From Acidimicrobiales bacterium (GTDB lineage Bacteria > Actinomycetota > Acidimicrobiia > Acidimicrobiales > JADJXE01), in assembly GCA_016716005.1 (NCBI GenBank), contig JADJXE010000001.1:2767011-2831010 (forward strand): 64,000 nt of DNA. The letters are read 5' to 3'. How positions within the stretch are numbered: the stretch's first letter is position 1; each line of letters starts with the position of its first letter. Both the position numbers and the translations under genes were made by a program. Shown one piece after another: positions 8,768 through 59,921 of this stretch. The notes below the pieces were generated by a model. The model worked only from the letters and a program-made list of their open reading frames with translations, did not search any database and was not told the origin of the DNA.

Positions 8768-9599
8768 GGTGCTCGGCTCTCTCCAGCAGACCCAGCACGG
8801 CCGGGGCCACCACCTCGGGCCACTCCGCCTGGGGATAGTGGCCGGCGTCGGGAACGAGGAGCACCTCGCCGCGGAGGCGGCCGCCGACCAGGCGGGCCTC
8901 GGCGGCCGGGTCGGGGAAGTCGGGGTCGCGCTCGCCCATGATCACCAGGGTGGGCGCCGAGACCCCGTCGAGCCGGGCCTCGATGGCTGCGTGGGAGCTG
9001 CGGGCGGTGGCCACGAACGAGCGCCAGTGCCCGGGGCGGCGCAGGCTCGCCCGGATGCGCTCCCGGTGCTCGGCCAGGTCGGCGGGCGGGCGGCCCGTGT
9101 AGAGCCGGGCGTAGAAGGCACTCCAGGCGGCCGGGCCCCACGGCCGGCACAGGCCGAGGCGCAGCGCCAGGCGGCTGGCCAGGCCGAGGGGGACGTCGCG
9201 CACGAAGGGTCCGATCAGCACCAGCCCTGCGACCTGTCCCGGTGCCTCGGCTGCGGCCCACACCGCCGCGCCCGCGCCCAGCGAGCCGCCGACCAGCGCC
9301 GCCGGCCCGCCGCCCAGGTGGTCCACCAGGGCCAGCAGGTCGGTGCCGGCGGCCACGCCGTCATGGCGGGTGAAGCCGGCGTCGCTGTCACCGTGGCCGC
9401 GCAGGTCGGCGAGGGCCACCCGGTACCCGCCGGCCACCAGGGCGGGTACGACGAAGCGGTAGACGGAGCGGACGTCGCCCATGCCCGGCAGGCAGACCAC
9501 GAGGGGGCCGTCCCCGTGGACCTCGTAGGCGATGCGGCCCTCGGGGCGGGCGAGGAAGCGGGTCTCGGCAGGGACGGTCGGCGCCGGGCTCATCTGCAT
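8760..9599 (-). CDS. Alpha/beta hydrolase
   Basis: CLPGMGD, DLRGHG, GGSLGA and AGHYP motifs. Confidence 0.9.
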   Translation of the reverse strand: MQMSPAPTVPAETRFLARPEGRIAYEVHGDGPLVVCLPGMGDVRSVYRFVVPALVAGGYRVALADLRGHGDSDAGFTRHDGVAAGTDLLALVDHLGGGPAALVGGSLGAGAAVWAAAEAPGQVAGLVLIGPFVRDVPLGLASRLALRLGLCRPWGPAAWSAFYARLYTGRPPADLAEHRERIRASLRRPGHWRSFVATARSSHAAIEARLDGVSAPTLVIMGERDPDFPDPAAEARLVGGRLRGEVLLVPDAGHYPQAEWPEVVAPAVLGLLERAEHRA

Positions 9600-9631
9600 A
9601 GCTGTTACGCTAAGCTAATTAGCCACGGCCG

Positions 9632-10486
9632 TCAACCCCCGCGGTGGCGGTGCTCCTCGCCCAGCAGGCCGGCCACGTGGTCGGGCACGTAGGTGCTGGC
9701 CTCGCGGGGCGGGCGGACGTAGCCCTCGTCGGACTGGCGGGCGGGCAGGTCGAGCCGGGCCGGCACGTGGTCCTCGTAGGGCACCTGCTCGAGGATGTGG
9801 GCCAGGCAGTTCAGTCGGGCCCGACGCTTGTCGTCGGCCTCGACCACGAACCACGGGGCCTCGGGGATGTCGGTGTGCACGAACATCTCGTCACGGGCCC
9901 GCGAGTAGTCGACGTAGCGGCTGCGGGCGTACAGGTCCATGGGGCTGAGCTTCCAGCGCTTCGAGGGATCCTCGACCCGCTCCTGGAAGCGGCGCTCCTG
10001 CTCCTCGTCGCTCACCGAGAACCAGTACTTGAGCAGCAGGATCCCCGACTCGACCACCAACCGCTCGAAGATGGGGCACTGGCGCAGGAACAGCCGGTGC
10101 TCCTGGGGGGTGCAGAAGCCCATCACCTTCTCGACGCCGGCCCGGTTGTACCAGCTGCGGTCGAACACCACGATCTCGCCCGCGGCGGGCAGGTGCGCGA
10201 CGTAGCGCTGGAAGTACCACTGGGTGGTCTCGCGCTCGCTGGGCGCCGGGAGGGCGACGATGCGGGCGATGCGGGGGCTGAGCGGATCGGTGAGCCGCTT
10301 GATCATCCCGCCCTTGCCGGCCGCGTCCCGGCCCTCGAACACCAGCACCAGCTTCTGGCCGGTGTGGCGCACCCAGTACATCATCTTGACCGCTTCGGCC
10401 TGCAGCCTGGTCAGCTCGTCCTCGTACGTCTTCCTCGGCACCCGGCTCGCCGTCTCGACCGCCTGGGCGCGTTTGTCGTGAGCCAC
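9632..10486 (-). CDS. ppk2: Polyphosphate kinase 2
   Basis: Walker A EGRDAAGKGG, FDRSWYNRAGVE, RWKLSPMD. Confidence 0.96.
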   Translation of the reverse strand: MAHDKRAQAVETASRVPRKTYEDELTRLQAEAVKMMYWVRHTGQKLVLVFEGRDAAGKGGMIKRLTDPLSPRIARIVALPAPSERETTQWYFQRYVAHLPAAGEIVVFDRSWYNRAGVEKVMGFCTPQEHRLFLRQCPIFERLVVESGILLLKYWFSVSDEEQERRFQERVEDPSKRWKLSPMDLYARSRYVDYSRARDEMFVHTDIPEAPWFVVEADDKRRARLNCLAHILEQVPYEDHVPARLDLPARQSDEGYVRPPREASTYVPDHVAGLLGEEHRHRGG

Positions 10487-43264: not shown

Positions 43265-43275
43265 CGTCGAGGGTG

Positions 43276-44322
43276 ATGCGGAACCCCAAGGACTTCTTCC
43301 GGCCCCTCGCCGTGGGCGCCCCGACCCCATTGCGCGAGGCCCCCTTCACGCCGTCCCGGATGATCCACTTCTTCGACCCGGGCAACGAGAAGATGGTGGC
43401 CAAGCTCCCCGACCTGGCCCCGCAGGTCGACGTGCTGCTCGGCAACCTCGAGGATGCCATCGCGTCCGATCGCAAGGAGGCGGCCCGGGCCGGCCTGGTG
43501 CACGTGGGGCGCACCCTCGACCTCGGCGACACCCAGCTGTGGACCCGGGTGAACAGCCTCGACTCGCCCTGGGTGCTCGACGACCTGATCACCCTGGTCA
43601 CCGAGATCGGCGACGCCCTCGACGTGATCATGGTCCCCAAGGTCGAGGGCGCGGAGGACATCCACTACGTGGATCGCCTGCTGGCCCAGCTCGAGGCCCG
43701 CGCCGGGCTCGCCGAGCCGCTCCAGGTGCACGCCATCCTCGAGACGGCGCGGGGCGTGGCCAACGTCGAGGAGATCTGCGCGGCCTCGCCGCGCATGCAG
43801 GGCCTGTCGCTGGGCCCGGCCGACCTGGCCGCCGACCGTCGGATGAAGACCACCCGGGTGGGCGGCGGGCACCCCGACTACCTCGTGCGCGAGGACCCGG
43901 GCGACGACGAGTCGGCCCCCCGCGCCGTCTTCCAGCAGGACCTGTGGCACTACACGCTGGCCCGCATGGTCGACGCCTGCCGGTCCAACGGGATCTTCCC
44001 GTACTACGGCCCCTTCGGCGACATCAAGGACGTCGTCGCCTGCGAGGACCAGTTCCGCAACGCGTTCCTGCTGGGGTGCGTCGGGGCGTGGAGCCTCCAC
44101 CCGGTGCAGATCGAGATCGCCAAGCGGGTGTTCAGCCCCCCGGTGGCCGAGGTGGCGTGGGCCAAGCGGGTGATCGACGCCATGGGCGACGGCACCGGCG
44201 CGGTGATGATCGACGGGAAGATGCAGGACGACGCGACCGTGAAGCAGTGCCGGTCGGTGGTGGAGCTGGCCGAGCTGCTGGCGGCGCGCGACCCCGAGCT
44301 GAAGGAGGCCTACGGGCTGTGA
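43276..44322 (+). CDS. mcl: Malyl-CoA/beta-methylmalyl-CoA lyase (Chloroflexus-type Mcl)
   Basis: [50 protein letters not shown] match recalled Chloroflexus Mcl. Confidence 0.85.
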
Positions 44323-45203
44323 GCACCGACACCGCGATCCGTCCCCGCCGCTCGGTGCTGTACATGCCGGGCGCCAACACCAGGGCCCTGGAGAAGGCCA
44401 AGGGGCTGGCGGCCGACGCCCTCATCCTCGACCTCGAGGACGCGGTGGCCCCCGATGCCAAGCCCGAGGCGCGCGCCAACGTGGTCGCCGCCGTCACGGG
44501 GGGCGGCTACGGCCGGCGTGAGCTGGCGATCCGCGTCAACGCCCTCGGCACGCCGTGGGGCGCCGACGACGTGCGGGCCGCGGCCGGAGCCGGGCCCGAC
44601 GCGGTGCTGGTGCCCAAGGTGGAGAGCGCCGACGGCGTGCACGAGGCGCTGCGTGCCCTCGACGCCGCCGGCGCCCCTGCCGGCACCAGCCTGTGGGTGA
44701 TGCTCGAGACGCCCCTGGCCGTCCTGCGGGCCGCCGAGATCGCCGGCGCCAGCGAGCGGCTGACGGTGCTGGTGATGGGCACGAACGACCTGAGCAAGGA
44801 GCTCCGCTGTGCCATCCAGCCGGGACGCGAGCCCATGCTCTACGCCCTCGGCGCCTGCGTGGCCGCGGCGCGCTCGGCCGGCAAGGTGATCCTCGACGGG
44901 GTCTACAACGCCATCGACGACCCGGACGGGTTCGCGGCCGAGTGCCGCCAGGGGGTGGCCTTCGGGTTCGACGGCAAGACCCTGATCCACCCCAGCCAGC
45001 TCGAGCCGTGCAACGCCGCGTGGGCGCCCAGCGAGGCCGACGTGGCCCAGGCCCGCCGGATCATCCAGGCCTTCGAGCAGGCCCGGGCCGAGGGCCGGGG
45101 CGTGGTCACGGTCGACGGCCGCATGATCGAGAACCTCCACGTCGACAACGCCCGGCGGGCCCTGGCCATGGCCGAGGCCATCGCCGCCCTCGAGGAGGGC
45201 TGA
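44319..45203 (+). CDS. CitE-family CoA-ester lyase, malyl-CoA thioesterase (Mcl2)-like
   Basis: [44 protein letters not shown]; GTGA-coupled to mcl. Confidence 0.85.
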
Positions 45204-45249
45204 GCCCGAGCCGGGCCCCGGGCCGGGCCGCACCGGTAGGGTCGGCCCG

Positions 45250-46359
45250 GTGGAGCAGGTCGACGTGGTGGTGGTGGGGGCCGGCGCGATGGGGTCGGCC
45301 GCGGCCTGGTGGCTGGCCCGCCGGGGCCGGTCGGTCGCGCTGCTCGAGCGCTTCGAGCCCGGCCACGGTCGGGGGTCGAGCCACGGGTCGACCCGCCTCT
45401 TCCGGCTCGCCTACGACGATCCGCTCTACGTGCGGCTGGCCCAGGAGGCCCTGCCGCTGTGGCGCGAGCTCGAGGACGAGGCCGGCCGGCCCCTGCTCGA
45501 CGTCACCGGCTCCACCGACCACGGCGACCCGGTGGCGGTGGCCGCGGTGGCCGACGCCCTGGCCGCGTGCGGTGCGCCGTTCGAGCGCCTCACCCCCGGC
45601 GAGGCGGCCGAGCGCTGGACCGGGATGCGCTTCGACGGCGAGGTCGTGCACCAGCCCGAGGGCGGGCGTTGCCGCGCCGCCGACACCGTGGCCGCCCTCC
45701 GGGCCCTCGCCGCGGGCCTGGGGGCCGACGTGCGGAGCTCGGTCGGTGCGGCCACGGTCGAGCCCGGCGTCGACGGCGTCGTGGTGCGCGCCGGCGACGA
45801 CGGCGACCACCCCGGCGAGTCGTGGCGGGCACCGGTGGCGGTGGTGGCCGTGGGCTCGTGGGCCGAGCCCGTCCTGGGGCCGGCGCTCAAGCGGCTCGGG
45901 CCGTCGCTGCCCGACCTGGTCGTCACCCGCGAGCAGTGGCAGCACGCCCGCCCCCTCGACCCCGGCGCGGCCTGGCCCAGCTACATCCACCACCTGGCGC
46001 CCGAGGTGTACGGCCTGGCCGGGCCCGAGGGCGTGAAGCTGGCCTCGCACCACGCCGGCAGCCGCACCACGGGCGACGGGCGCTCGTTCGCGCCCGACCC
46101 GGCCGTGCTGGCCTGGGCCCGGTCGTACGCCGAGCGCTGGCTGCCCGGTTGCGACCCCGAGCCCGTCCACCCGGCCACCTGCCTCTACACCAGCACGCCC
46201 GGCAAGGACTTCGTGATCGACCGGGTCGGCCCGATCGTGGTCGGTTCGCCGTGCTCGGGCCACGGCTTCAAGTTCACCCCGGTGATCGGGCGGATGCTGG
46301 CCGACCTGGCCGACGGGACCGCCGACCGGGCCCACGACCCCCGCTGGGCCCTCGCCTGA
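45250..46359 (+). CDS. Monomeric sarcosine oxidase/N-methyltryptophan oxidase-like flavoprotein
   Basis: GAGAMG, GSSHGSTR, TCLYT, CSGHGFKF. Confidence 0.88.
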   Translation: MEQVDVVVVGAGAMGSAAAWWLARRGRSVALLERFEPGHGRGSSHGSTRLFRLAYDDPLYVRLAQEALPLWRELEDEAGRPLLDVTGSTDHGDPVAVAAVADALAACGAPFERLTPGEAAERWTGMRFDGEVVHQPEGGRCRAADTVAALRALAAGLGADVRSSVGAATVEPGVDGVVVRAGDDGDHPGESWRAPVAVVAVGSWAEPVLGPALKRLGPSLPDLVVTREQWQHARPLDPGAAWPSYIHHLAPEVYGLAGPEGVKLASHHAGSRTTGDGRSFAPDPAVLAWARSYAERWLPGCDPEPVHPATCLYTSTPGKDFVIDRVGPIVVGSPCSGHGFKFTPVIGRMLADLADGTADRAHDPRWALA

Positions 46360-46420
46360 CGGGCGTGCGGCCGCGGTCCCGATCGGGGACCAGGGCCCGC
46401 CGGCCTGGCAGGCTGGGCGG

Positions 46421-47503
46421 GTGGCCGGCGAGGTGCGGTACGGGATCATCGGGACCGGGATGATGGGCATCGAGCACGTGGCCAGCCTGCGGGCCCTCGA
46501 CGGAGCCAGGGTGGTGGCGCTGGCCGACCCGCACGAGCCCTCGCTGGGCGCCGCGGTGGCCGCGCTGGGCGAGGACGCCGCCGGCGTGCACGTCTACGGC
46601 GACCACCGCGAGCTGCTCGACTCGGGCGGCTGCGATGCCGTGGTGATCGCGTCGCCGAACATGACCCACGCCGACGTGCTGGTCGACGTGCTCGCCACCG
46701 ACGTGCACGTGCTGGTGGAGAAGCCGCTGTGCACCACGGTCGAGGACTGCCGGCGGGTGGCCGCCGCGGCCGAGGGGCGCCGGGCCCTCGTCGCCGTGGG
46801 CCTCGAGTACCGGTTCATGCCCTCGACGGCGCGGTTCGTGGCCGAGGTGCGGGGCGGCACGGTCGGCCGGCTGCGCATGCTCGCCATCCGGGAGCACCGC
46901 TTCCCGTTCCTGGTGAAGGTCGGCGACTGGAACCGCTTCAACCGCAACACCGGGGGCACGCTGGTCGAGAAGTGCTGCCACTTCTTCGACCTCATGCGGC
47001 TGGTGGCCGGCAGCGACCCGGTGAGGCTGCTGGCCTCCGGCGGGCAGAGCGTCAACCACCTCGACGAGGTGTACGGCGGCGAGGTGCCCGACATCCTCGA
47101 CAACGCCTACGTCATCGTCGACTTCGCCGACGGGGTGCGCGCCCTGCTCGACCTGTGCATGTTCGCCGAGGCCACCCATCACTCCGAGGAGCTGGTCGCG
47201 GTGGGCGACCGGGGCAAGGTCGAGGCCCTGCTGCCCCAGGGCACGGTGCGGGTCGGTCGTCGGGGCGAGCACTGGATCGGCGGCGTCGAGCACGATCGGG
47301 TGGCCGACGACCGGGTTCGCTACGAGGGGTTCCATCACGGCGCCTGCTACCTCGAGCACGCCGACCTGCTGGAGGCGATCCGCGCCGGCCGCCGCCCGGC
47401 GGTCGGTCTCGACGACGGGCTCTGGTCGGTGGCCATGGGCGTGGCCGCGCACCGTTCGATCGACGAGGGTCGGGTGGTCACCATGGACGAGGTGCTGGGG
47501 TGA
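46421..47503 (+). CDS. Gfo/Idh/MocA-fold enzyme, probable NAD+-dependent sulfoquinovosidase (GH188/SqgA-like)
   Basis: EKP, GLEYRFMP, REHRFPFLVKVGDWNRF, GGTLVEKCCHFFDL; operon context with smoB/smoC-like genes. Confidence 0.7.
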   Translation: MAGEVRYGIIGTGMMGIEHVASLRALDGARVVALADPHEPSLGAAVAALGEDAAGVHVYGDHRELLDSGGCDAVVIASPNMTHADVLVDVLATDVHVLVEKPLCTTVEDCRRVAAAAEGRRALVAVGLEYRFMPSTARFVAEVRGGTVGRLRMLAIREHRFPFLVKVGDWNRFNRNTGGTLVEKCCHFFDLMRLVAGSDPVRLLASGGQSVNHLDEVYGGEVPDILDNAYVIVDFADGVRALLDLCMFAEATHHSEELVAVGDRGKVEALLPQGTVRVGRRGEHWIGGVEHDRVADDRVRYEGFHHGACYLEHADLLEAIRAGRRPAVGLDDGLWSVAMGVAAHRSIDEGRVVTMDEVLG

Positions 47504-48429
47504 CGGCCGGCGGGGGTCTGGTCGACGCCGGCCCCCGGTCGCTGGCGCCAGGGCTGCTCCCCGTGGGGCCGCTCGGGTTCGGGTGCTGGCGCCTCACCAC
47601 GCCCTCCACCGCCGAGGCGCGGGTGCTGGTCGAGGCGGCGCTCGACGCCGGGCTCACCCTCGTCGACACCGCCGACGTGTACGGGCTCGACTGGGGCGGC
47701 CGCGGCCTCGGCAGCGTCGAGGAGCGCCTCGGGGCGGTGCTGGTCGAGGCGCCGTCGCTGCGGGAGCGCATGGTGCTCGCGACCAAGGGTGGGATCGTGC
47801 CGGGCGTGCCGTACGACTCGAGCCCCGCCCACCTGCGAGCGGCGTGCGAGGCGTCGCTGCGGCGCCTCGGCGTGGAGGCCGTCGACCTCTGGATGATCCA
47901 CCGGCCCGATCCCTTCACCCACCCGGCCGCGGTCGCCGAGACCCTGGTGGCGCTGCGCGACGAGGGCAAGATCCTCGCCGCCGGCGTGTCGAACTGCACC
48001 GTCGCCCACCTGGACGCCCTCCAGGCCCACCTGCCGTTCCCGCTGGCCACCAACCAGGTAGAGCTGTCTGCCGCGCACCTCGACCCGCTCGTCGACGGGA
48101 CCCTCGACCGGTGCCTGCGCGACGGCACGGTGCCCACGGCCTGGAGCCCGCTCGCCGGCGGCCGGCTGGCCACCGGCGCCGGGCCCGGCGACGGCGCGGT
48201 CCGGACCGAGCTGCTGGCCGTACTCGACCGCCTGGCCCGGCGCGAGGGCGTCGACCGCACCGCGGTGGCGCTGGCGTTCGTGCTCTCCCACCCGTCCCGA
48301 CCCGTGGCCCTGGTGGGCACCCAGCGGCCCGACCGGATCCGGGCGGCCACGGCCGCCCTCCGCGTCCGGTTGACCCGCGCCGACGTGTACGCCGTGATCG
48401 AGGCGTCGACCGGCGAGCCGCTGCCGTGA
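47500..48429 (+). CDS. Aldo/keto reductase, SmoB (6-oxo-glucose reductase)-like
   Basis: DTADVYG, ATKGG, IHRPDP, GVSN, TNQVE, AWSPL; coupled to both neighbours. Confidence 0.8.
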   Translation: MTAGGGLVDAGPRSLAPGLLPVGPLGFGCWRLTTPSTAEARVLVEAALDAGLTLVDTADVYGLDWGGRGLGSVEERLGAVLVEAPSLRERMVLATKGGIVPGVPYDSSPAHLRAACEASLRRLGVEAVDLWMIHRPDPFTHPAAVAETLVALRDEGKILAAGVSNCTVAHLDALQAHLPFPLATNQVELSAAHLDPLVDGTLDRCLRDGTVPTAWSPLAGGRLATGAGPGDGAVRTELLAVLDRLARREGVDRTAVALAFVLSHPSRPVALVGTQRPDRIRAATAALRVRLTRADVYAVIEASTGEPLP

Positions 48430-49541
48430 CCGCCGGGTCCGGCGAGGGGCCGGGGGTGCGCCCGGTGGAGGTGGCCTGGTTCGCGGCGCTGTGCGACGAC
48501 GACCACGAGTTCCTGGGGGTCGCCGACCCGTACCTGCGCAGCTCGTGGGAGCACTGCCGGAACCTGGCGCTGCTCGCCGAGCGCCACGGGTTCGACAGCC
48601 TGCTGCTCCCGTCGGGCTACGCCATGGGCATCGACAACGTGGCGTTCGCGGCCGGCATCGCCCCGCTCACCCGGCGGATCGGCCTGCTGCTGGCGGTGCG
48701 CGTGGGCGAGCTGGTGTTGCCGCAGCTGGCCCGCCAGCTCGCCACCCTCGACCAGCTGGCCGAGGGGCGTCTGGCCGTGAACGTGATCTCCAGCGACGTG
48801 CCCGGCGAGCAGCTGCCGGCCGATGCCCGCTATCGGCGCACCCTCGAGGTGATGGCGGTGCTGCGCGACCTGCTCGACGGCCGGCCCGTCGACGTGCGCG
48901 GCGAGTTCGTGCGCCTCGCCGTCGACCCTCCCCGGGTGGCCGTGGACGGGCGGGGGTGCCCGCCGTACTACTTCGGTGGGCTCTCCCACGAGGCGCGCGA
49001 GTGCGCGGCGGCCGGGGCCGACGTGTACCTCACCTGGCCCGACACCGCCGACCGGGTCGCTGCCCTGATCGCCGACGTGCGGGCGCGGGCCGCCCGCAGG
49101 GGCCGCAGCCTGCGGTTCGGCTGGCGCTCCCACGTGATCGTGCGGGAGACCGAGGCCGAGGCCCAGGCGGCGGCGCGCCGGCTGCTCAGCCGCCTCGATC
49201 CCGACGAGGGTGCCCGCATCCGGGCCCGTTCCCTCGACAGCACCTCGGCCGGGGTGCGGCGGCAGGGTGAGCTGCGCGCCGGCGCGGACGACGAGGGCTA
49301 CGTGGAGCGCCACCTCTGGACGGGGGTGGGCCGGGCCCGCAGCGGGGCCGGCGCGGCCATCGTGGGCGATCCCGACCAGGTGCTGGCCACCCTGGAGGGC
49401 CTCCGCGACCTCGGTGTCGACGCCTTCATCCTGTCGGGCTACCCGCACGCGGCCGAGTGCGATCTGGTCGCCCGCTACGTGCTCCCGCACCTGCCCCACG
49501 CGCCGCTGGCCGTCACGCCCCAGCCGGTCGCCCTCGCCTGA
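48426..49541 (+). CDS. smoC: LLM monooxygenase, sulfoquinovose monooxygenase (SmoC/SquD)-like
   Basis: WFAALCDDD..LG...LRSSWEHC, NVISSD, YVERHLWTGVGRARSG, ILSGYPH match recalled Agrobacterium SmoC. Confidence 0.75.
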   Translation: MTAGSGEGPGVRPVEVAWFAALCDDDHEFLGVADPYLRSSWEHCRNLALLAERHGFDSLLLPSGYAMGIDNVAFAAGIAPLTRRIGLLLAVRVGELVLPQLARQLATLDQLAEGRLAVNVISSDVPGEQLPADARYRRTLEVMAVLRDLLDGRPVDVRGEFVRLAVDPPRVAVDGRGCPPYYFGGLSHEARECAAAGADVYLTWPDTADRVAALIADVRARAARRGRSLRFGWRSHVIVRETEAEAQAAARRLLSRLDPDEGARIRARSLDSTSAGVRRQGELRAGADDEGYVERHLWTGVGRARSGAGAAIVGDPDQVLATLEGLRDLGVDAFILSGYPHAAECDLVARYVLPHLPHAPLAVTPQPVALA

Positions 49542-49552
49542 CCCGGCTCCGT

Positions 49553-49692
49553 CGTCTTGTGCGCGGGCGGTGCGTGTGGGGCGTCGTGGGAGCGATGGGG
49601 ACGTGGGGGTCGGCGTCTTGTGCGCGGGCGGTGCGTGTGGGGCGTCGTGGGCGCGATGGGGACGTGGGGGTCGGCGTCTTGTGCGCGGGCGG
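49553..49692 (+). repeat. 61-bp tandem repeat (~2.3 copies), each unit with a G-quadruplex motif
   Basis: Units start at 49553, 49614 and 49675 (one mismatch between the full units); GGGG-N6-GGG-N6-GGGG-N4-GGGGG. Confidence 0.9.
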
Positions 49693-49928
49693 CCCGCTGG
49701 GACGGCGCGCTGCTGGCGGCGGTGTCCGCCGACGGGATGATCAACCCCCTCACGCCCTCCCAGCCGGCCGAGGCGGTCGCGGTGATGGGCGGGCACCGGC
49801 CCGTGGGCGCGGGCCCCTTCGCGGTGGCCGTGATCACTCCCGGCCCACCTGATGCGGCCGCGACCGCCGCGCTGGCCGAGGCCTGGGCGACCGGGATCCT
49901 GGTGGCCGGCGCCTGCGGCGGGGCCTGA
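49684..49928 (+). pseudogene. Possible C-terminal remnant of an LLM-class gene
   Basis: RAARWDG...P...AALAEAWAT resembles LLM C-termini; no credible start. Confidence 0.4.
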
Positions 49929-49932
49929 CGGC

Positions 49933-51540
49933 CTAGCTGGCCTGCTGGGCGTCGGCGACGAGCCGGCGGGCGATCACCTTGAGGCAGAGGGTCTCGTCGG
50001 CGCCCTCGAAGATCGACAGCACGCGGGCGTCGACGAAGAGCCGGCTGACGGGGTACTCCTCGGCGTAGCCGAACCCGCCGTGGATCTGCATGGCCTCGCG
50101 CGTCACCCACTCGGCGGCCTTGCACACGTACGCCTTCACCATCGACGCCTCGAGAGCACCCTCGCCCTTGGCCATCATCCGGGCCACCGCGTAGGAGAAC
50201 TGGCGGCTGGCCTGGATGATCGCCGCCATCCGGCCCAGCTTGGCCTGGGTGAGCTGGTAGTCGGCGATGGGGTGGCCGAACACCACGCGGTCGAGGGCGT
50301 ACTGGCGGGCCGACTCGTACGCGGCCTGCATCACACCTAGGGCGCGGGCCGCGGTCTGGAGCCGGCCGTTCTCGAAGCCCTCCATCTGCAGGTAGAAGCC
50401 CTTGCCCAGGCCGTCGCGGCCGCCCACCAGGCACGACTCGGGCACCCACCAGGCGTCGAGGGCGACCTCGTAGGAGTGCATGCCCCGGTACCCGATGGTG
50501 TCGATGGGGCGGCCCTCCATCTTGCCGCCGCCCTCCTGGGTGAACTCGAAGCCGTGGCCCTCGCCGCGGGGCTTCGGCACGACGAACAGCGACAGGCCGC
50601 GATGGCCCTTCGAGCGGTCGGGGTCGGTGCGGGCCAGCAGCATGAGCACGTCGGCGCGGGCGCCGAAGGTGCACCAGGTCTTCACCCCGTTGATGACCCA
50701 CCCGGGCTCGCCACCGGGGCCGGCCTGCTCGGCGGCGGTGACCTTGATGCCGGCCACGTCGGAGCCGTAGTCGGGCTCGGTGACCGCGACCGCGGCCATC
50801 ACCTCGGCCGTGGCCAGCTTGGGGAGCCACTGCTGCTTCTGCTCCTCGGTGCCGCCCTTCACCAGGGCCCGGGTGAGGATCTCGGGCCGGGTGATGAGCG
50901 AGCCACCGATGCCGAGGGACCCGCGTGAGAGCTCCTCGGTGGCCACGACCATGCCCAGGTAGTCGTGCTCGCCGCCGGCGGCGAAGCCGCCGTACTCCTC
51001 GGGCACGGACAGGCCGAAGCCGCCCATCTCGGCCAGGCCGGCGATGATGTCCTCGGGCACGTCGGCGTTGGCCCGGTGCACGTGCTCGGCGACCGGCTTG
51101 ATCTTCTCGTCGGCGAAGCGGCGGAAGGTGTCCTGCACCATCTCGAAGTCGGGATCGAGGTGGCGGGGCCCCTCCACCTCGGCCAGGCCGGCGAGGAACG
51201 CGGGGCTGCGGTACGCGGCGAGGAACTCGCGAGCACCGTCGAGCGAGCCGGGCTCGACGCCCCAGTCGGCTTCGCGCCCGAAGACCTTGGCGCCCAGGTC
51301 GGCCACCGCGTCGGCGATGAAGGCGCAGGCCAGCCGCCGCTCGGCGTCACCCTTGGCGCCGTAGTCGAGCAGCGACCGGGCGGTCTCGACGGCGGCGGCC
51401 GCGTGGGCCAGGTCGTAGGCCACCACCTGGTTGGCGTCGAGGTCGCCCTGGGCGGCCAGGTGGCGGACGGCCCGCCCCACGACCCCGTGGGCGAGGTCGA
51501 CGATCGTGGCGGCGGTGGCGAGATCGGGCGCAGCGGTCAT
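49933..51540 (-). CDS. Long acyl-CoA dehydrogenase, (2S)-methylsuccinyl-CoA dehydrogenase-like
   Basis: 535 aa with N-terminal extension; EELSRG, TEPDYGSD, IGYRGMHSYE, QTAARA, SIFEGA. Confidence 0.8.
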   Translation of the reverse strand: MTAAPDLATAATIVDLAHGVVGRAVRHLAAQGDLDANQVVAYDLAHAAAAVETARSLLDYGAKGDAERRLACAFIADAVADLGAKVFGREADWGVEPGSLDGAREFLAAYRSPAFLAGLAEVEGPRHLDPDFEMVQDTFRRFADEKIKPVAEHVHRANADVPEDIIAGLAEMGGFGLSVPEEYGGFAAGGEHDYLGMVVATEELSRGSLGIGGSLITRPEILTRALVKGGTEEQKQQWLPKLATAEVMAAVAVTEPDYGSDVAGIKVTAAEQAGPGGEPGWVINGVKTWCTFGARADVLMLLARTDPDRSKGHRGLSLFVVPKPRGEGHGFEFTQEGGGKMEGRPIDTIGYRGMHSYEVALDAWWVPESCLVGGRDGLGKGFYLQMEGFENGRLQTAARALGVMQAAYESARQYALDRVVFGHPIADYQLTQAKLGRMAAIIQASRQFSYAVARMMAKGEGALEASMVKAYVCKAAEWVTREAMQIHGGFGYAEEYPVSRLFVDARVLSIFEGADETLCLKVIARRLVADAQQAS

Positions 51541-51573
51541 GACGCCGAGGTTACCGACGGGTCACCCGGCCGG

Positions 51574-53310
51574 TCATCTCGGCGGGTCGGCGGCGGTCTC
51601 CGAGGTCCGGGGCCGCACTCCCGTCAGATCGAGGACGAGCGAGGCCGGCGGCCGGTACCCGGCCAGCCACCGGGGGAGTGCGGCGGCCTCCAGGGGCGGG
51701 CTCACGAGGAAGCCCTGGACGCGGTCGCAGCCCAGCTCGACCAGCCGGGCCAGGGTGGCCTCCTGCTCGACCCCCTCGGCGACCACCTCGAGATCCAGGT
51801 TGTGCCCCAGGTCGACGATGGTGCGCACGATCACCTCGTCGGGCGCGTGCTCGGCCATGCCGGCCACGAAGGACCGGTCGATCTTGATCTGGTCGAGCGG
51901 CAGCCGGCGCAGGTAGGCGAGCGACGACCAGCCCGTGCCGAAGTCGTCGACGCTGGTGCGCACGCCCACCCGGTCCAGCTCGACCAGCACCGCCAGCGCA
52001 GCCGCCGGGTCCTCCATGACCTCGCTCTCGGTGAGCTCGAGGACGAGCCGGTCCGCGGGCACGCGGTGTCGGGCCAGGAGCCGGCCGACGTGGCCCGGGA
52101 GCGCGGGGTCGTGGAGGTCGCGGACCGACACGTTGACCGCCACGCTCAGGTCGAGGCCCTGGCGCCGCCAGGCCGCGCACTGGCGGATGGCCTCGGCCAG
52201 CACCCACCGGGTGAGCGGGGCCAGCAGGCCGGTGACGGCGGCCAGGTCGAGGAACTCCGAGGGGGGGAGCAGCTGGTGCTCCGGGTGGCGCCAGCGCACC
52301 AGGCACTCCACCCCCGCGACCCGGCCGGAGCGCACCGCCAGCATGGGCTGGTGGTGGAGCTCGAGCTCCCCCTCGTCGAGGGCCCGGCGCAGGTCGGCGG
52401 CCAGCGCCAGGCGACGCCGGCTGTGGCGCTCGTGGTCGGGCTGGTACACGGCCTGGGCGGCCTCGGACCGCTTGGCCACGGCCAGAGCCACGTCGGCCCT
52501 GCGCAGCAGGCTGTCGGCGTCGTCGCCGTGGTCGGGCGCGAGGGCGATCCCGATGCTCACCCGCACCGGCAGGGCCAGGCCGTCGAGCACGACCGGCGAC
52601 TGCAGGGCGCCCACCACGGCGCCGGCCACGGCTTCGGCCTCCTGGCGGCCCGAGCCGGGCAGCACGATGCCGAACTCGTCGCCCCCCACGCGGGCGACGG
52701 TTGCCGACTCGTCGATCGTGCCCGCCAGGCGCACCGCGACCTCGCGCAGCAGCTGGTCGCCGTGGTGGTGCCCGAGTGTCTCGTTCACCTGCTGGAACTG
52801 CTCGACGTCGGCCACGAGGAGGGCGACGGGGCGACTCGGCCGGGCCGCCACCAGGGCCTGATCGAGCCGATCGACCAGCAGCGCCCGGTTGGGGAGACCG
52901 GTGAGCGGATCGCGCACGGCCTGGCGCGCCAGCCGGGCCTCGGTCGCGAGGCGGGTGGTCTCGTCGTCGAGCACGACGGCCACCGTGTCGGCGTCGACCG
53001 GGACGGCGCGCAGGGTGAGGCGGGTCCCGCCGGCCGCTCCCGCGAGGGCCACCTCCTGCAGGTCCACGCAAGCCCCGACGGCGGCGGCGTGGGCCAGCAG
53101 GGCCTCGGCGCCCTGCTCGGCCAGCCCGGGGAACAGGGCGGTGAGCGGCCGCCCCACGAGGGTCGCGGCCCCCCGGTCGAGGACGCGCCCGGCCGCCGGG
53201 TTGGCGGCGGTCACCACGACCCGGGGTGGCCGACCCGGGGTGATCCCGAGCACCAGCACGCCTACGGGCAGGCTCTCCAGCACGGCGCCGGCGAGCGCGT
53301 CTGCGAGCAC
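51574..53310 (-). CDS. PAS-GGDEF-EAL c-di-GMP protein
   Basis: DPLTGLPNR, GGDEF, ECLVRW, ELTE, DDFGTG, IKID, EGVE. Start GTG 53310. Confidence 0.92.
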   Translation of the reverse strand: MLADALAGAVLESLPVGVLVLGITPGRPPRVVVTAANPAAGRVLDRGAATLVGRPLTALFPGLAEQGAEALLAHAAAVGACVDLQEVALAGAAGGTRLTLRAVPVDADTVAVVLDDETTRLATEARLARQAVRDPLTGLPNRALLVDRLDQALVAARPSRPVALLVADVEQFQQVNETLGHHHGDQLLREVAVRLAGTIDESATVARVGGDEFGIVLPGSGRQEAEAVAGAVVGALQSPVVLDGLALPVRVSIGIALAPDHGDDADSLLRRADVALAVAKRSEAAQAVYQPDHERHSRRRLALAADLRRALDEGELELHHQPMLAVRSGRVAGVECLVRWRHPEHQLLPPSEFLDLAAVTGLLAPLTRWVLAEAIRQCAAWRRQGLDLSVAVNVSVRDLHDPALPGHVGRLLARHRVPADRLVLELTESEVMEDPAAALAVLVELDRVGVRTSVDDFGTGWSSLAYLRRLPLDQIKIDRSFVAGMAEHAPDEVIVRTIVDLGHNLDLEVVAEGVEQEATLARLVELGCDRVQGFLVSPPLEAAALPRWLAGYRPPASLVLDLTGVRPRTSETAADPPR

Positions 53311-53406
53311 CGGACGAGTGTGGACCGGCGGGATCCGCCGGACGGGGATGGTCGCCCGGACCCGGGCGCGACCCACCTGGGGTGGAGGCGTCGGTAGTGT
53401 CGTGGG

Positions 53407-53970
53407 GTGCCCCAGCTCATGCCCACCCTCCGTCGCGCCGGCGCGCTCGCGCTGGGCGCGATCCTGCTCACCGCCCTGCTCGCCGGATGTGGAGACGACG
53501 ACGACAGCGGCGGTGGCGGCGGCTCGGCCGACGTCGACCTCGAGGAGCTCTCGTCGCAGTGCGAGGAGCTGGCCACCACGGTCGAGGACCCGCTCGCCTA
53601 CCTGTTGGACGACATCGCCGGCCTCGAGGAGGCGACGGCCGGGGCCTCGGTGTCGCCGGACCAGTTCGAGGCCATGCGCGACCGGGTGTCCGAGCTGAGC
53701 GAGAAGGATCAGCGCTACGTCTCGTGGGCGACGTGCATGGTGAACCTGGGCCCGCCGGTGCGCTTCGCGTGCGGCCCGGTGAACCCGGAGGCCACGTACC
53801 TCGTCGAGCTGAACGAGCAGTGCAAGCCGATCTACCCCCCGTCGCTGACCGACGAGGTGGTCACCAACCCCATGCCGCACGGAGAGATCCCCGTCCCGCC
53901 GGCCACCACCGAGACGACCGTCCCGGTGACGTCGGCGGACCAGGGCACCTCGACGACCGCTGGCGCGTGA
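53407..53970 (+). CDS. Hypothetical lipoprotein
   Basis: LAGC lipobox, acidic/Gly linker, four further Cys, Thr-rich tail. Confidence 0.75.
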   Translation: MPQLMPTLRRAGALALGAILLTALLAGCGDDDDSGGGGGSADVDLEELSSQCEELATTVEDPLAYLLDDIAGLEEATAGASVSPDQFEAMRDRVSELSEKDQRYVSWATCMVNLGPPVRFACGPVNPEATYLVELNEQCKPIYPPSLTDEVVTNPMPHGEIPVPPATTETTVPVTSADQGTSTTAGA

Positions 53971-54048
53971 GCCGGCCCGGCGCGGGCTGGTGGCGCTGGG
54001 CACCCCTCTCGTAAGGTCGGGGCTGTCCCCACGGCCGCTCACAGCGAG

Positions 54049-54573
54049 GTGAGGCGCGTGACCGTCTACGACCGCCCCTTCGGTCGCTACCTCGAGGACT
54101 TCGAGGTCGGCGACATCTACCGGCACTGGCCCGGCAAGACCATCACCGAGTACGACGACCACCTGTTCTGCATGATCACCATGAACCACCACCCGTTGCA
54201 CACCAACGAGTGGTTCGCCGAGAACGAGACCGTGCACAAGAAGAACGTGGTGGTGGGCAACCTCGTCTACTCGCTCGTGCTGGGGATGAGCGTGCCCGAC
54301 GTATCGGGCGCGGCCATCGCCAACCTCGAGGTCGAGTCGCTCACCCACAAGCGGCCCACCTTCCACGGCGACACCATCTACGCCGAGACCCGCGTGCTCG
54401 ACAAGGTGGAGTCGTCGTCGAAGCCCGACCGGGGCATCGTCACGGTGGAGACGAAGGGCTTCAACCAGCGCGGCGAAGAGGTCTGCTACTTCCGCCGCAA
54501 GGTGATGGTGTGGAAGCGCGAGGTCGCCCCGCCGCGGCGTCGGCCCTACGGCGACGACGTCTGGGACGCCTAG
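54049..54573 (+). CDS. MaoC-family (hotdog) acyl-CoA dehydratase
   Basis: GRYLEDF, TMNHHPLH, PTFHGDT. Confidence 0.92.
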   Translation: MRRVTVYDRPFGRYLEDFEVGDIYRHWPGKTITEYDDHLFCMITMNHHPLHTNEWFAENETVHKKNVVVGNLVYSLVLGMSVPDVSGAAIANLEVESLTHKRPTFHGDTIYAETRVLDKVESSSKPDRGIVTVETKGFNQRGEEVCYFRRKVMVWKREVAPPRRRPYGDDVWDA

Positions 54574-59361: not shown

Positions 59362-59429
59362 GGTGTGGGCGGCCCGGCGGGCCGTGGCACGATCTGGTGT
59401 CTCGTCCCCCCGCTCCAGGAGGCCGCTCC

Positions 59430-59921
59430 GTGGCCGACCAGCTCCCGCTCGACCCGGCCTCGTTCCGTCAGGTGCTCGGCTACTTCCCGACCGGCGTCAC
59501 CGTGATCACCGCCCACCCGGCCGGCGAGGCCCCGGTCGGCCTGGCCGTGGGCTCGTTCACCTCGGTGTCGCTCGAGCCGCCCCTGGTGGCGTTCTGCCCG
59601 GCCAGGACCTCGGGGAGCTGGCCCAGGATCCAGGCCACCGGTGTGTTCTGCGTGAACGTCCTGGCCGCCGACCAGGAGCACGTGTGCCGGGTGTTCGCGG
59701 GGAAGGGCGACGACAAGTTCGCCGGCCTCGGCTGGCGGCCGTCGCCGGCGGGGTCACCGGTGCTGGCCGACGCGCTGGCCTGGATCGACTGCGCGATCGA
59801 CGCGGTGCACGAGGCCGGCGACCACTTCATCGTGGTGGGTCGGGTCACCGCGCTGGCCGTGGAGCGTGCGGAGCGCCCCCTCGTGTTCTTCCGTGGCGGC
59901 TACGGCAGCGTCGCCAGCTGA
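59430..59921 (+). CDS. Flavin reductase (HpaC-like)
   Basis: FPTGVTVIT, SFTSVSLEPP, AGDH, FFRG. Confidence 0.93.
   Translation: MADQLPLDPASFRQVLGYFPTGVTVITAHPAGEAPVGLAVGSFTSVSLEPPLVAFCPARTSGSWPRIQATGVFCVNVLAADQEHVCRVFAGKGDDKFAGLGWRPSPAGSPVLADALAWIDCAIDAVHEAGDHFIVVGRVTALAVERAERPLVFFRGGYGSVAS

Follow-up and report, generated by a model that had tools for sequence, protein, structure and literature searches.

A compact three-gene module predicted to encode the core of sulfolytic sulfoquinovose breakdown in Acidimicrobiales

We identified three contiguous genes that very probably encode the catalytic core of a sulfolytic sulfo-SMO (sulfo-ASMO) pathway, as judged by sequence comparison, in a member of the Acidimicrobiales. 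The genes lie in a 64,000-nucleotide stretch of DNA (the window) from a genome of 3.8 Mb and 75% G+C, whose host, originally predicted to be an actinobacterium, can be narrowed to this order. Output of the plant sulfosugar sulfoquinovose is put at ~10 billion tonnes per year (PMC10755693). [quoted passage not shown]

Three overlapping genes on the forward strand

Three consecutive genes encode proteins of 360, 309 and 371 amino acids, with the Pfam domains GFO_IDH_MocA (N and C), Aldo_ket_red and Bac_luciferase, respectively. At both junctions the sequence reads GTGA (47500–47503 and 48426–48429), the downstream GTG start overlapping the upstream TGA stop. The coupling by GTGA proposed in the original prediction is confirmed. 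All three frames are open, with frame-specific, genome-typical codon bias (GC3 0.96–0.97). An alternative GTG start for the first gene, four codons later at 46433, has no consequence for the reading. The features are as follows.

46360..46420, + strand: spacer of 61 nt between an upstream amine-oxidase-like gene and sqgA (direct sequence reading)
46421..47503, + strand: gene 1, sqgA-like, predicted GH188 NAD+-dependent sulfoquinovosidase (Pfam, PDB matches, residues)
47500..48429, + strand: gene 2, smoB/squF-like, aldo-keto reductase, putative 6-oxo-glucose (6-dehydroglucose) reductase (Pfam, PDB, clade)
48426..49541, + strand: gene 3, smoC/squD-like, predicted FMNH2- and O2-dependent sulfoquinovose monooxygenase (Pfam, PDB, tree)
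59397..59921, + strand: candidate NADH:flavin reductase, outside the operon (Pfam Flavin_Reduct, NCBIfam)

The spacer contains a short hairpin (GGTCCC-GATCG-GGGACC, 46375–46391) and is probably the site of the operon's own promoter. A scan for consensus sigma-70 promoters and terminators across 45–50.2 kb of the window, spacer included, returned nothing, which says little because of the high G+C content of the genome. smoC is followed by a G-rich tandem repeat (61 bp) and by a coding-like remnant of 78 aa that lacks a start and has no homologue in its own genome or the related loci and no NCBIfam match.

Family, structural and residue evidence

Gene 1 encodes a Gfo/Idh/MocA protein (PF01408, 4e-28, residues 5–127) with the NAD+ Rossmann motif GIIGTGMMG. 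Its top PDB matches are three characterized SqgA enzymes, ArSqgA (8qc3, 1.2e-96), RdSqgA (8zn9, 8.4e-94) and FlSqgA (8qc2, 7.7e-92), and the next match follows ~70 orders of magnitude behind (2.5e-27); the identities of 8QC3, 8QC2, 8ZN9, 7BBZ, 7OH2 and 7OLF as SqgA, SmoB or SmoC were checked through the respective papers. Kaur et al. 2023 described nine residues for catalysis and sulfonate binding (ArSqgA K107, Y136, E164, R166, L170, K172, E189, H193 and H321), and all of them are identical in gene 1 in the HMMER alignment (K101, Y130, E158, R160, L164, K166, E183, H187 and H305). Within this set, the catalytic and sugar-binding residues Lys107, Tyr136, Glu189, His193 and His321 correspond to K101, Y130, E183, H187 and H305, and the sulfonate-binding triad (Arg166, Lys172 and the Leu170 backbone) to R160, K166 and L164, in a segment reading REHRFPFLVKV (VEHRFPFLHKV in ArSqgA). 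Identity to ArSqgA is ~49% over 348 aligned positions, no paralogue was found in the same genome at 1e-8, and the best named NCBIfam match, iolG, scores 124.6 bits, under its curated cut-off of 355. Gene 1 is predicted to encode a GH188 sulfoquinovosidase (SqgA) that would cleave alpha- and beta-sulfoquinovosides in an NAD+-dependent manner, and the structural matches and retained residues bear out the GH188-type assignment made originally.

Gene 3 encodes a luciferase-like protein (Bac_luciferase, 5e-51) whose best structural matches are RoSmoC (7oh2, 1e-98, 334 bits) and AtSmoC (7olf, 5.5e-95, 322 bits), compared with 215, 201 and 109 bits for MsuD, SsuD and SfnG. Its score against the NCBIfam SsuD equivalog, 252 bits, is below the cut-off of 518. 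Phylogenetic analysis placed it within a SmoC/SquD clade with Ro/AtSmoC and Sphingomonadales sequences (support 100/99), apart from SsuD/MsuD. Gene 3 keeps 34 of 37 clade-signature positions, differing at Y27H, S132A and R249Q (RoSmoC numbering), in a test that is partly circular, the 79 clade sequences having been retrieved with the gene 3 protein as query. The RoSmoC residues W206, R236, H238, Y341 and H343 correspond to W204, R234, H236, Y339 and H341 in the PDB-match alignment, and the FMN-phosphate residues Tyr136 and Ser189 to Y136 and S187; being common to SsuD and MsuD, these sulfonate and FMN-phosphate residues show a competent enzyme and not its specificity. The sulfonate-binding residues that the original prediction had singled out for checking are thus all kept, in gene 1 (with the catalytic residues) and in the SmoC constellation of gene 3.

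Gene 3, the sole SsuD-like gene in the genome, is predicted to encode a sulfoquinovose monooxygenase of the SmoC/SquD clade that would desulfonate sulfoquinovose, in line with the SmoC-like LLM monooxygenase first proposed. The assignment of sulfoquinovose as its probable substrate draws on clade membership and gene linkage, because no substrate complex of SmoC exists to point to its specificity residues.

Gene 2 (Aldo_ket_red, PF00248, 2e-52) keeps the tetrad D56, Y61, K96 and H134 together with R135 and W215. SmoB is its top PDB match (7bbz, 2e-44, 155.6 bits), about equal to the YdhF-type structures 7twz, 4r9o and 1og6 (1.6e-42 to 4e-40; 149.4, 144.2 and 141.6 bits). In the reductase tree AtSmoB and YdhF fall together, across a split from gene 2, which joins the reductases encoded beside smoC in the related loci in a clade of 28 members (support 100/100). 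The glucose-contacting Lys120 of AtSmoB has no counterpart in gene 2, where the loop is 10 residues shorter, a deletion common to all 27 smoC-linked reductases aligned. Gene 2 is of the kind linked to smoC in Novosphingobium and other Sphingomonadales, not of the Agrobacterium type. The SmoB-like reductase of the original prediction has SmoB as its top structural match and falls in a smoC-linked clade, but E. coli YdhF is as close to it as SmoB is. We infer that gene 2 encodes a SmoB/SquF-like 6-oxo-glucose reductase, a function that rests mainly on linkage to smoC because the scores against SmoB and YdhF are about equal.

Genomic context

We compared the locus with 80 related loci spanning Actinomycetota, Alphaproteobacteria, Myxococcota and others. 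In 60 of these the smoC-like gene has an sqgA-like gene no more than 3 kb away, in 27 it has a reductase gene at this distance or less, and in 19 it has both; the identical order and strand of all three genes recurs in 2 of the 80. Given these proximity counts, the three-gene arrangement is not due to chance. At least two genomes of related Acidimicrobiales, L007 and L078 (Aquihabitans), have the bare arrangement too, although the smoB-like gene of L078 appears to be split. A 2026 survey defined sulfo-SMO clusters by genes for SmoB and SmoC within 10 ORFs, and here they sit among three contiguous, overlapping genes.

Neither a transporter or binding protein nor a regulator or flavin reductase is encoded within ~10 kb of the three genes, and no linked transporter or regulator was present among the genes scanned (27–62.5 kb of the window); this neighbourhood scan bears out the original remark that neither a flavin reductase nor a transporter is adjacent. 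When the PF03601, LysR, MFS and LacI genes that are neighbours in related loci served as tblastn queries, the genome yielded no homologue at 1e-8. Three flavin reductase genes were found genome-wide, two of PF01613 (59397–59921 and C1:218754) and one of PF03358 (C1:1283728). The first (Flavin_Reduct, 1.3e-48; NCBIfam HsaB-like, 227.7 bits, cut-off 230) lies 10 kb from the operon, its linkage is not conserved across the 80 related loci, and its product is a candidate that could supply FMNH2. It had been proposed in this role with coordinates 59430–59921; family and candidate status hold, and the start is now placed at 59397.

We considered an operon reaching further upstream and rejected it, as the genes on that side (two for CitE/RipC-like lyases and one resembling N-methyltryptophan oxidase) belong with the downstream acyl-CoA dehydrogenase and RipB-like hydratase genes to a separate set for acyl-CoA metabolism of an itaconate or ethylmalonyl-like kind. 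None of these genes recurs beside smoC in the 80 related loci.

Elsewhere in the genome, the only GH31 gene encodes a secreted lipoprotein whose nearest solved relatives are the sulfoquinovosidases YihQ and SmoI. It was rejected as a second sulfoquinovose locus, its counterpart of the sulfonate-binding Trp being His and its neighbours unrelated.

Predicted pathway and alternative readings

In the proposed pathway, cytoplasmic SqgA with tightly bound NAD+ would oxidize a sulfoquinovoside, for example sulfoquinovosyl glycerol, at C3, eliminate the aglycone, rehydrate and re-reduce the sugar, and so release free sulfoquinovose. The SmoC/SquD-type monooxygenase would then use FMNH2 and O2 to break the C6–S bond, yielding sulfite and 6-oxo-glucose, which the aldo-keto reductase may reduce with NAD(P)H to give glucose. 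FMNH2 would come from an unlinked flavin reductase, the substrate would enter through an unlinked transporter, and the module may serve carbon supply, sulfur supply or both. This is the reaction sequence of the original prediction, and PDB matches, trees, residues and linkage support it at the level of sequence.

The same enzymes might instead serve chiefly to scavenge sulfur, furnishing sulfite for assimilation under sulfate limitation and standing in for the missing Ssu system, which we regard as rather unlikely to be their main purpose. The smoC-like gene is the only member of the SsuD family in the genome, it has neither a sugar transporter nor a catabolic regulator beside it, and SsuD-type systems are classic sulfate-starvation genes. 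A glucose-recovering reductase beside smoC, as found in 27 of the 80 related loci, nevertheless makes sense mainly with carbon use, and the Agrobacterium pathway supports growth on sulfoquinovose as a carbon source (PMC8795539). The two roles are not exclusive. As to the substrate, it is improbable that a related 6-sulfonated hexoside or other sulfonated glycoside takes the place of sulfoquinovose. SmoC has no substrate complex to show its specificity determinants, the similarity of SqgA (~49% identity) and of the monooxygenase (334/322 bits to SmoC) to characterized enzymes is too distant to settle the substrate, and a sulfofucose pathway is known (PMC12421959); yet the SqgA residues contacting the C1–C4 hydroxyls and the sulfonate of sulfoquinovose are all identical, and the gene sits among smoC homologues with GH188 linkage in many phyla.

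A cryptic or decaying module, with intact enzymes in a cell that cannot import the substrate, is very improbable. It would fit the lack of a linked transporter, the absence from the genome of homologues of the relatives' linked membrane proteins, and the tandem repeat and start-less remnant 3′ of smoC, whereas the three open frames with genome-typical codon bias oppose it, and retention of the bare triad in the other Acidimicrobiales (L007, L078) argues for selection and an unlinked uptake system. Least credible is a generic trio brought together by chance, in which gene 1 would encode a sugar or inositol dehydrogenase, gene 2 a housekeeping aldo-keto reductase and gene 3 an alkanesulfonate monooxygenase of the SsuD type. 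The best named NCBIfam matches are indeed iolG and SsuD, names that surface since NCBIfam gave no match to a model for SqgA or SmoC, but both scores are far under the curated cut-offs, and the structural ranking, the tree, the signature positions, the sulfonate-binding residues of gene 1 and the conserved linkage contradict it. The SsuD and inositol dehydrogenase reading is thereby largely refuted; the original prediction had named best matches to SsuD/SfnG or inositol dehydrogenases as the outcome that would count against it, and the closest solved relatives are instead SqgA, SmoB and SmoC. We retain the sulfo-SMO reading.

Significance

The gain is incremental, the pathway being known and the lineage one in which it was already predicted. 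The original prediction described sulfo-SMO as mainly alphaproteobacterial, which holds for experimental work, carried out in Alphaproteobacteria only, but not for the literature at large: the published GH188 list already includes many Acidimicrobiia, and the 2026 survey reported sulfo-SMO clusters as frequent in Actinomycetota, for which the record consists of survey-level predictions only. The taxonomic surprise is smaller for that reason. The locus offers a compact, intact example that might serve as an annotation template for Acidimicrobiales, where current NCBI models would give the names ‘Gfo/Idh/MocA oxidoreductase’, ‘aldo/keto reductase’ and ‘LLM class monooxygenase’. A cultured relative, Aquihabitans daechungensis DSM 27986 (L078), is at hand for testing the prediction.

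With more doubt than confidence, we propose that sulfo-SMO in Acidimicrobiales takes the form of a bare sqgA-(smoB)-smoC module without its own importer, regulator or flavin reductase (window, L007 and Aquihabitans L078), which, if active, could make these bacteria complete sulfoquinovose mineralizers that rely on an unlinked uptake route. Such a route might work with the secreted GH31 lipoprotein. The organisms concerned would be widespread free-living actinobacteria, and a Gram-positive lineage would for the first time be shown to have a sulfolytic pathway for sulfoquinovose.

Comparison with characterized systems

The smoABCDEFGHI cluster of A. tumefaciens (Sharma et al. 2022, PMC8795539) shares with the window an FMNH2-dependent monooxygenase of the same clade, a reductase of the YdhF/SmoB subfamily and the same proposed chemistry, from sulfoquinovose to sulfite and 6-oxo-glucose and on to glucose. 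Its glycosidase is the GH31 enzyme SmoI, in contrast to GH188 SqgA here, and the window, from an actinobacterial host, lacks the SmoA flavin reductase, the SmoEFGH ABC importer and a regulator, as well as the Lys120 loop of SmoB. The sulfo-ASMO cluster of N. aromaticivorans (SquD, SquF; Liu et al. 2021, reviewed in PMC9594981) likewise has no flavin reductase, so a cluster-encoded one is not universal; it was found through a GH31 YihQ gene. Sphingomonadales, including Novosphingobium MAGs, group with the monooxygenase and reductase described here, the link to SquD and SquF being through homologues of the same genus.

With the E. coli SsuD/SsuE system, gene 3 shares a TIM barrel of the luciferase-like type, chemistry based on FMNH2 and O2, and the conserved residues for sulfonate and peroxyflavin. 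SsuD belongs to a separate clade, set apart at the 37 signature positions and also through indels (such as NLVTGSDPQELAGDG in SsuD versus NVISSDVPGE in the gene 3 protein), and neither ssuE nor ssuABC is found here. SqgA of Arthrobacter sp. U41, Flavobacterium sp. K172 and Roseobacter denitrificans (8QC3, 8QC2, 8ZN9; PMC10755693, PMC12780224) has the fold, Rossmann motif and nine residues in common with gene 1. The Arthrobacter enzyme, at ~49% identity, serves a sulfo-EMP pathway and not sulfo-SMO, whereas in Roseobacter-clade bacteria SqgA is encoded inside a sulfo-SMO cluster without a GH31 gene, as it is in the window.

A probable sulfoquinovose monooxygenase operon

Three consecutive genes very probably form the core of a sulfoquinovose monooxygenase (sulfo-SMO) pathway, as the original prediction proposed for 46421-49541; family membership, active-site residues, coupling and conserved linkage are observed and carry this reading. 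Window G+C is 71-77%, because of which spurious frames crowd raw ORF lists; genes were called by frame-specific GC3 analysis, which resolved a plus-strand gene run at ~39.9-49.5 kb ending in the triad.

46421-47503, plus strand: gene 1, sqgA-like, 360 aa, GC3 0.96-0.97, Pfam GFO_IDH_MocA N and C domains
47500-48429, plus strand: gene 2, smoB/squF-like, 309 aa, GC3 0.96-0.97, Pfam Aldo_ket_red
48426-49541, plus strand: gene 3, smoC-like, 371 aa, GC3 0.96-0.97, Pfam Bac_luciferase

The sequence reads GTGA at both junctions (47500-47503 and 48426-48429), so that each downstream GTG start overlaps the upstream TGA stop, a classic sign of translational coupling; with three plus-strand frames and matching Pfam domains, the predicted GTGA-coupled arrangement was borne out. 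A 61-nt spacer sets the triad apart from the upstream gene, and within it, 5' of sqgA, lies a short hairpin (GGTCCC-GATCG-GGGACC, 46375-46391) that could be a terminator of the upstream gene or an operator.

Assignment of the three proteins

Against all PDB sequences, gene 1 was matched best by 8QC3 (1.2e-96), 8ZN9 (8.4e-94) and 8QC2 (7.7e-92), with the fourth-ranked structure at only 2.5e-27. 8QC3 (ArSqgA) and 8QC2 (FlSqgA) are the NAD+-dependent sulfoquinovosidases founding GH188 (depositing papers), and 8ZN9 is from a marine SqgA study. With a 13-residue tag offset corrected, gene 1 is identical to ArSqgA at all sulfoquinovose contacts of Kaur et al. (Lys107, Tyr136, Glu189, His193 and His321; K101, Y130, E183, H187 and H305 in gene 1), throughout the sulfonate triad of the same authors (Arg166, Leu170 and Lys172; R160, L164 and K166) and at a neighbouring Glu (E158). 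The GH188 assignment was thereby upheld, sulfonate-binding residues included. Gene 1 passes no NCBIfam model, and an inositol dehydrogenase was rejected on an iolG score of 124.6 bits versus a cut-off of 355 and on the far higher rank of the SqgA structures. A search of the full assembly (3.79 Mb, nine contigs, 99.6% complete) recovered no SqgA paralogue.

For gene 3, the predicted SmoC-like identity was supported. It scored 334 bits against RoSmoC (7OH2) and 322 bits against AtSmoC (7OLF) in the PDB, compared with 215 for MsuD, 201 for E. coli SsuD and 109 for SfnG. An SsuD or SfnG identity was further opposed by the SsuD equivalog model (NCBIfam; 252 bits versus a cut-off of 518) and by a maximum-likelihood tree whose 100/99-supported clade unites gene 3 with Ro/AtSmoC, Sphingomonadales, Acetobacteraceae and many Acidimicrobiia and leaves out SsuD, MsuD and the SsuD-like genes found in related genomes. 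Motifs and indels missing in SsuD are present (WFAALCDDD; NVISSDVPGE without the SsuD insertion). Gene 3 also keeps 34 of 37 signature positions, meaning residues conserved to 97% or more across 81 SmoC-clade sequences and missing from the five SsuD-clade sequences compared, a partly circular test because gene 3 was the query that retrieved most clade members. Sharma et al. (PMC8795539) describe a Trp-Arg-His-Tyr-His constellation and FMN-phosphate residues, which gene 3 retains; as both are common to SsuD, they mark a competent enzyme, not specificity. No other SsuD-family gene occurs in the assembly at E ≤ 1e-10.

The SmoB-like reading of gene 2 agrees with the Aldo_ket_red domain and the top PDB match (SmoB, 7BBZ, 2e-44); YdhF-type reductases score nearly as well (1.6e-42 to 4e-40). 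The catalytic tetrad and equivalents of Arg152 and Trp232 are kept, and the loop bearing SmoB Lys120 is deleted, as it is in all 27 reductases adjoining smoC in related loci. With these 27, which include Novosphingobium and Sphingobium proteins, gene 2 forms one clade (support 100/100); it has no close paralogue in its own genome. Given the near-equal YdhF-type scores, the deleted loop and this clade, we infer a 6-oxo-glucose reductase from smoC linkage and from the Novosphingobium aldo-keto reductase SquF, reported as characterised in the review PMC9594981, and not from specific SmoB similarity.

Linkage in related loci

Genomes scanned at one per species yielded 276 monooxygenase relatives, of which the best 80 loci were fetched with flanks of up to 10 kb each side. 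Among these 80, 60 have an sqgA-like gene no more than 3 kb from smoC, 27 have the reductase within that distance and 19 have both. Two loci share the window's exact order and strand (L001 and L007), the proteins of L001 being 77%, 65% and 80% identical to the three encoded here. Recurrent smoC neighbours are MFS, TonB-receptor and LacI genes in Alphaproteobacteria and, in Acidimicrobiia, a LysR regulator (20 fetched loci) and a PF03601 (YeiH-type) membrane protein (18 fetched loci; for example L042:11130-12194, directly downstream of smoC). L009:7436-8350 is a second example locus for the Acidimicrobiia neighbours. The PF03601 protein is a candidate sulfoquinovose or sulfite transporter and the LysR protein a candidate regulator; to our knowledge, neither neighbour has been described for the sulfo-SMO pathway.

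Six of the 80 loci (L034, L043, L047, L050, L065 and L066; Streptosporangiaceae, Mycobacteriales and unclassified Actinomycetota) carry a smoC-clade gene, its product 66-69% identical to the gene 3 protein, with no sqgA-like or smoB-like gene in the fetched flanks, and the substrate may differ in this subclade. ABC exporter-type genes recur in a cluster of 9 of the 80 loci, represented by Mycobacteriales L050.

A bare module and its genomic context

Flank annotation of the window recovered no LysR, PF03601, MFS, TonB-receptor or LacI neighbour, and tblastn (1e-8) found no homologues of the relatives' PF03601, LysR, MFS and LacI neighbours in the genome. As predicted, no transporter adjoins the triad; the flanks encode unrelated enzymes.

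43273-46359, one side of the triad: two CitE/RipC-like C-C lyases and an N-methyltryptophan-oxidase-like flavoprotein
49933-54573, other side of the triad: 535-aa acyl-CoA dehydrogenase, GGDEF-EAL protein and RipB/Ich-like enoyl-CoA hydratase

These genes are an acyl-CoA set unrelated to the triad and resemble one of the itaconate or ethylmalonyl type that the triad interrupts. The two relatives annotated, L007 and Aquihabitans daechungensis (L078), likewise hold the triad amid unrelated genes, so the bare module recurs in Acidimicrobiales, the order to which this genome also belongs. In L078 (DSM 27986, NZ_CP172265.1), a cultured relative, the smoB-like gene adjoining smoC seems split into overlapping frames (9070-9786 and 9729-10001, within 9070-10001), which suggests a frameshift or sequencing error, and a GDSL/DUF459 lipase gene directly adjoins sqgA.

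A G-rich 61-bp tandem repeat (49553-49692, 2.3 copies, 98% match) begins 11 nt past the smoC stop, and partial copies of its core occur at C1:2135550 and C1:2135614 of the same genome. It is followed by a start-less stretch with coding-like GC3 (49692-49928), whose 78-aa reading matches no NCBIfam model and lacks homologues both in the genome and across the 80 related loci.

Elsewhere in the genome, two PF01613 reductases and one PF03358 protein are possible FMNH2 suppliers, one of the former being HsaB-like (59397-59921 of the window; NCBIfam 227.7 bits versus a cut-off of 230), and four TauE-family genes could export sulfite. The only GH31 gene lies apart from the triad.

G000:C1:637384-640116 (L101:8385-11117), minus strand: GH31 gene, 910-aa predicted lipoprotein

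Among solved structures, this protein is closest to the sulfoquinovosidases YihQ (5AED, 1.6e-73) and Agrobacterium SmoI (5OHS/7OFX), and the alpha-glucosidase 6PNR scores almost as high. Equivalents of YihQ Arg301, Tyr508, Asp405 and Asp472 are kept, Trp304 is His, and the neighbours (amidase, GGDEF-EAL and FIST) are unrelated to sulfoquinovose.

Proposed pathway and precedent

The substrates, the supply of cofactors, the uptake route and the role in physiology are inferred. SqgA would free sulfoquinovose from glycosides via transient C3 oxidation with NAD+, SmoC with FMNH2 and O2 would yield sulfite and 6-oxo-glucose, and the reductase would convert the latter to glucose. Agrobacterium and Novosphingobium are the genera in which sulfo-SMO was established, and the pathway is also widely distributed among Roseobacter-clade bacteria. 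Many Acidimicrobiia entries, Ilumatobacter among them, already figure in the list of GH188 members given by Kaur et al., and a 2026 survey describes sulfo-SMO clusters as frequent in Actinomycetota. A precedent is N. aromaticivorans, whose sulfo-SMO cluster, like the triad described here, is without a flavin reductase of its own (PMC9594981).
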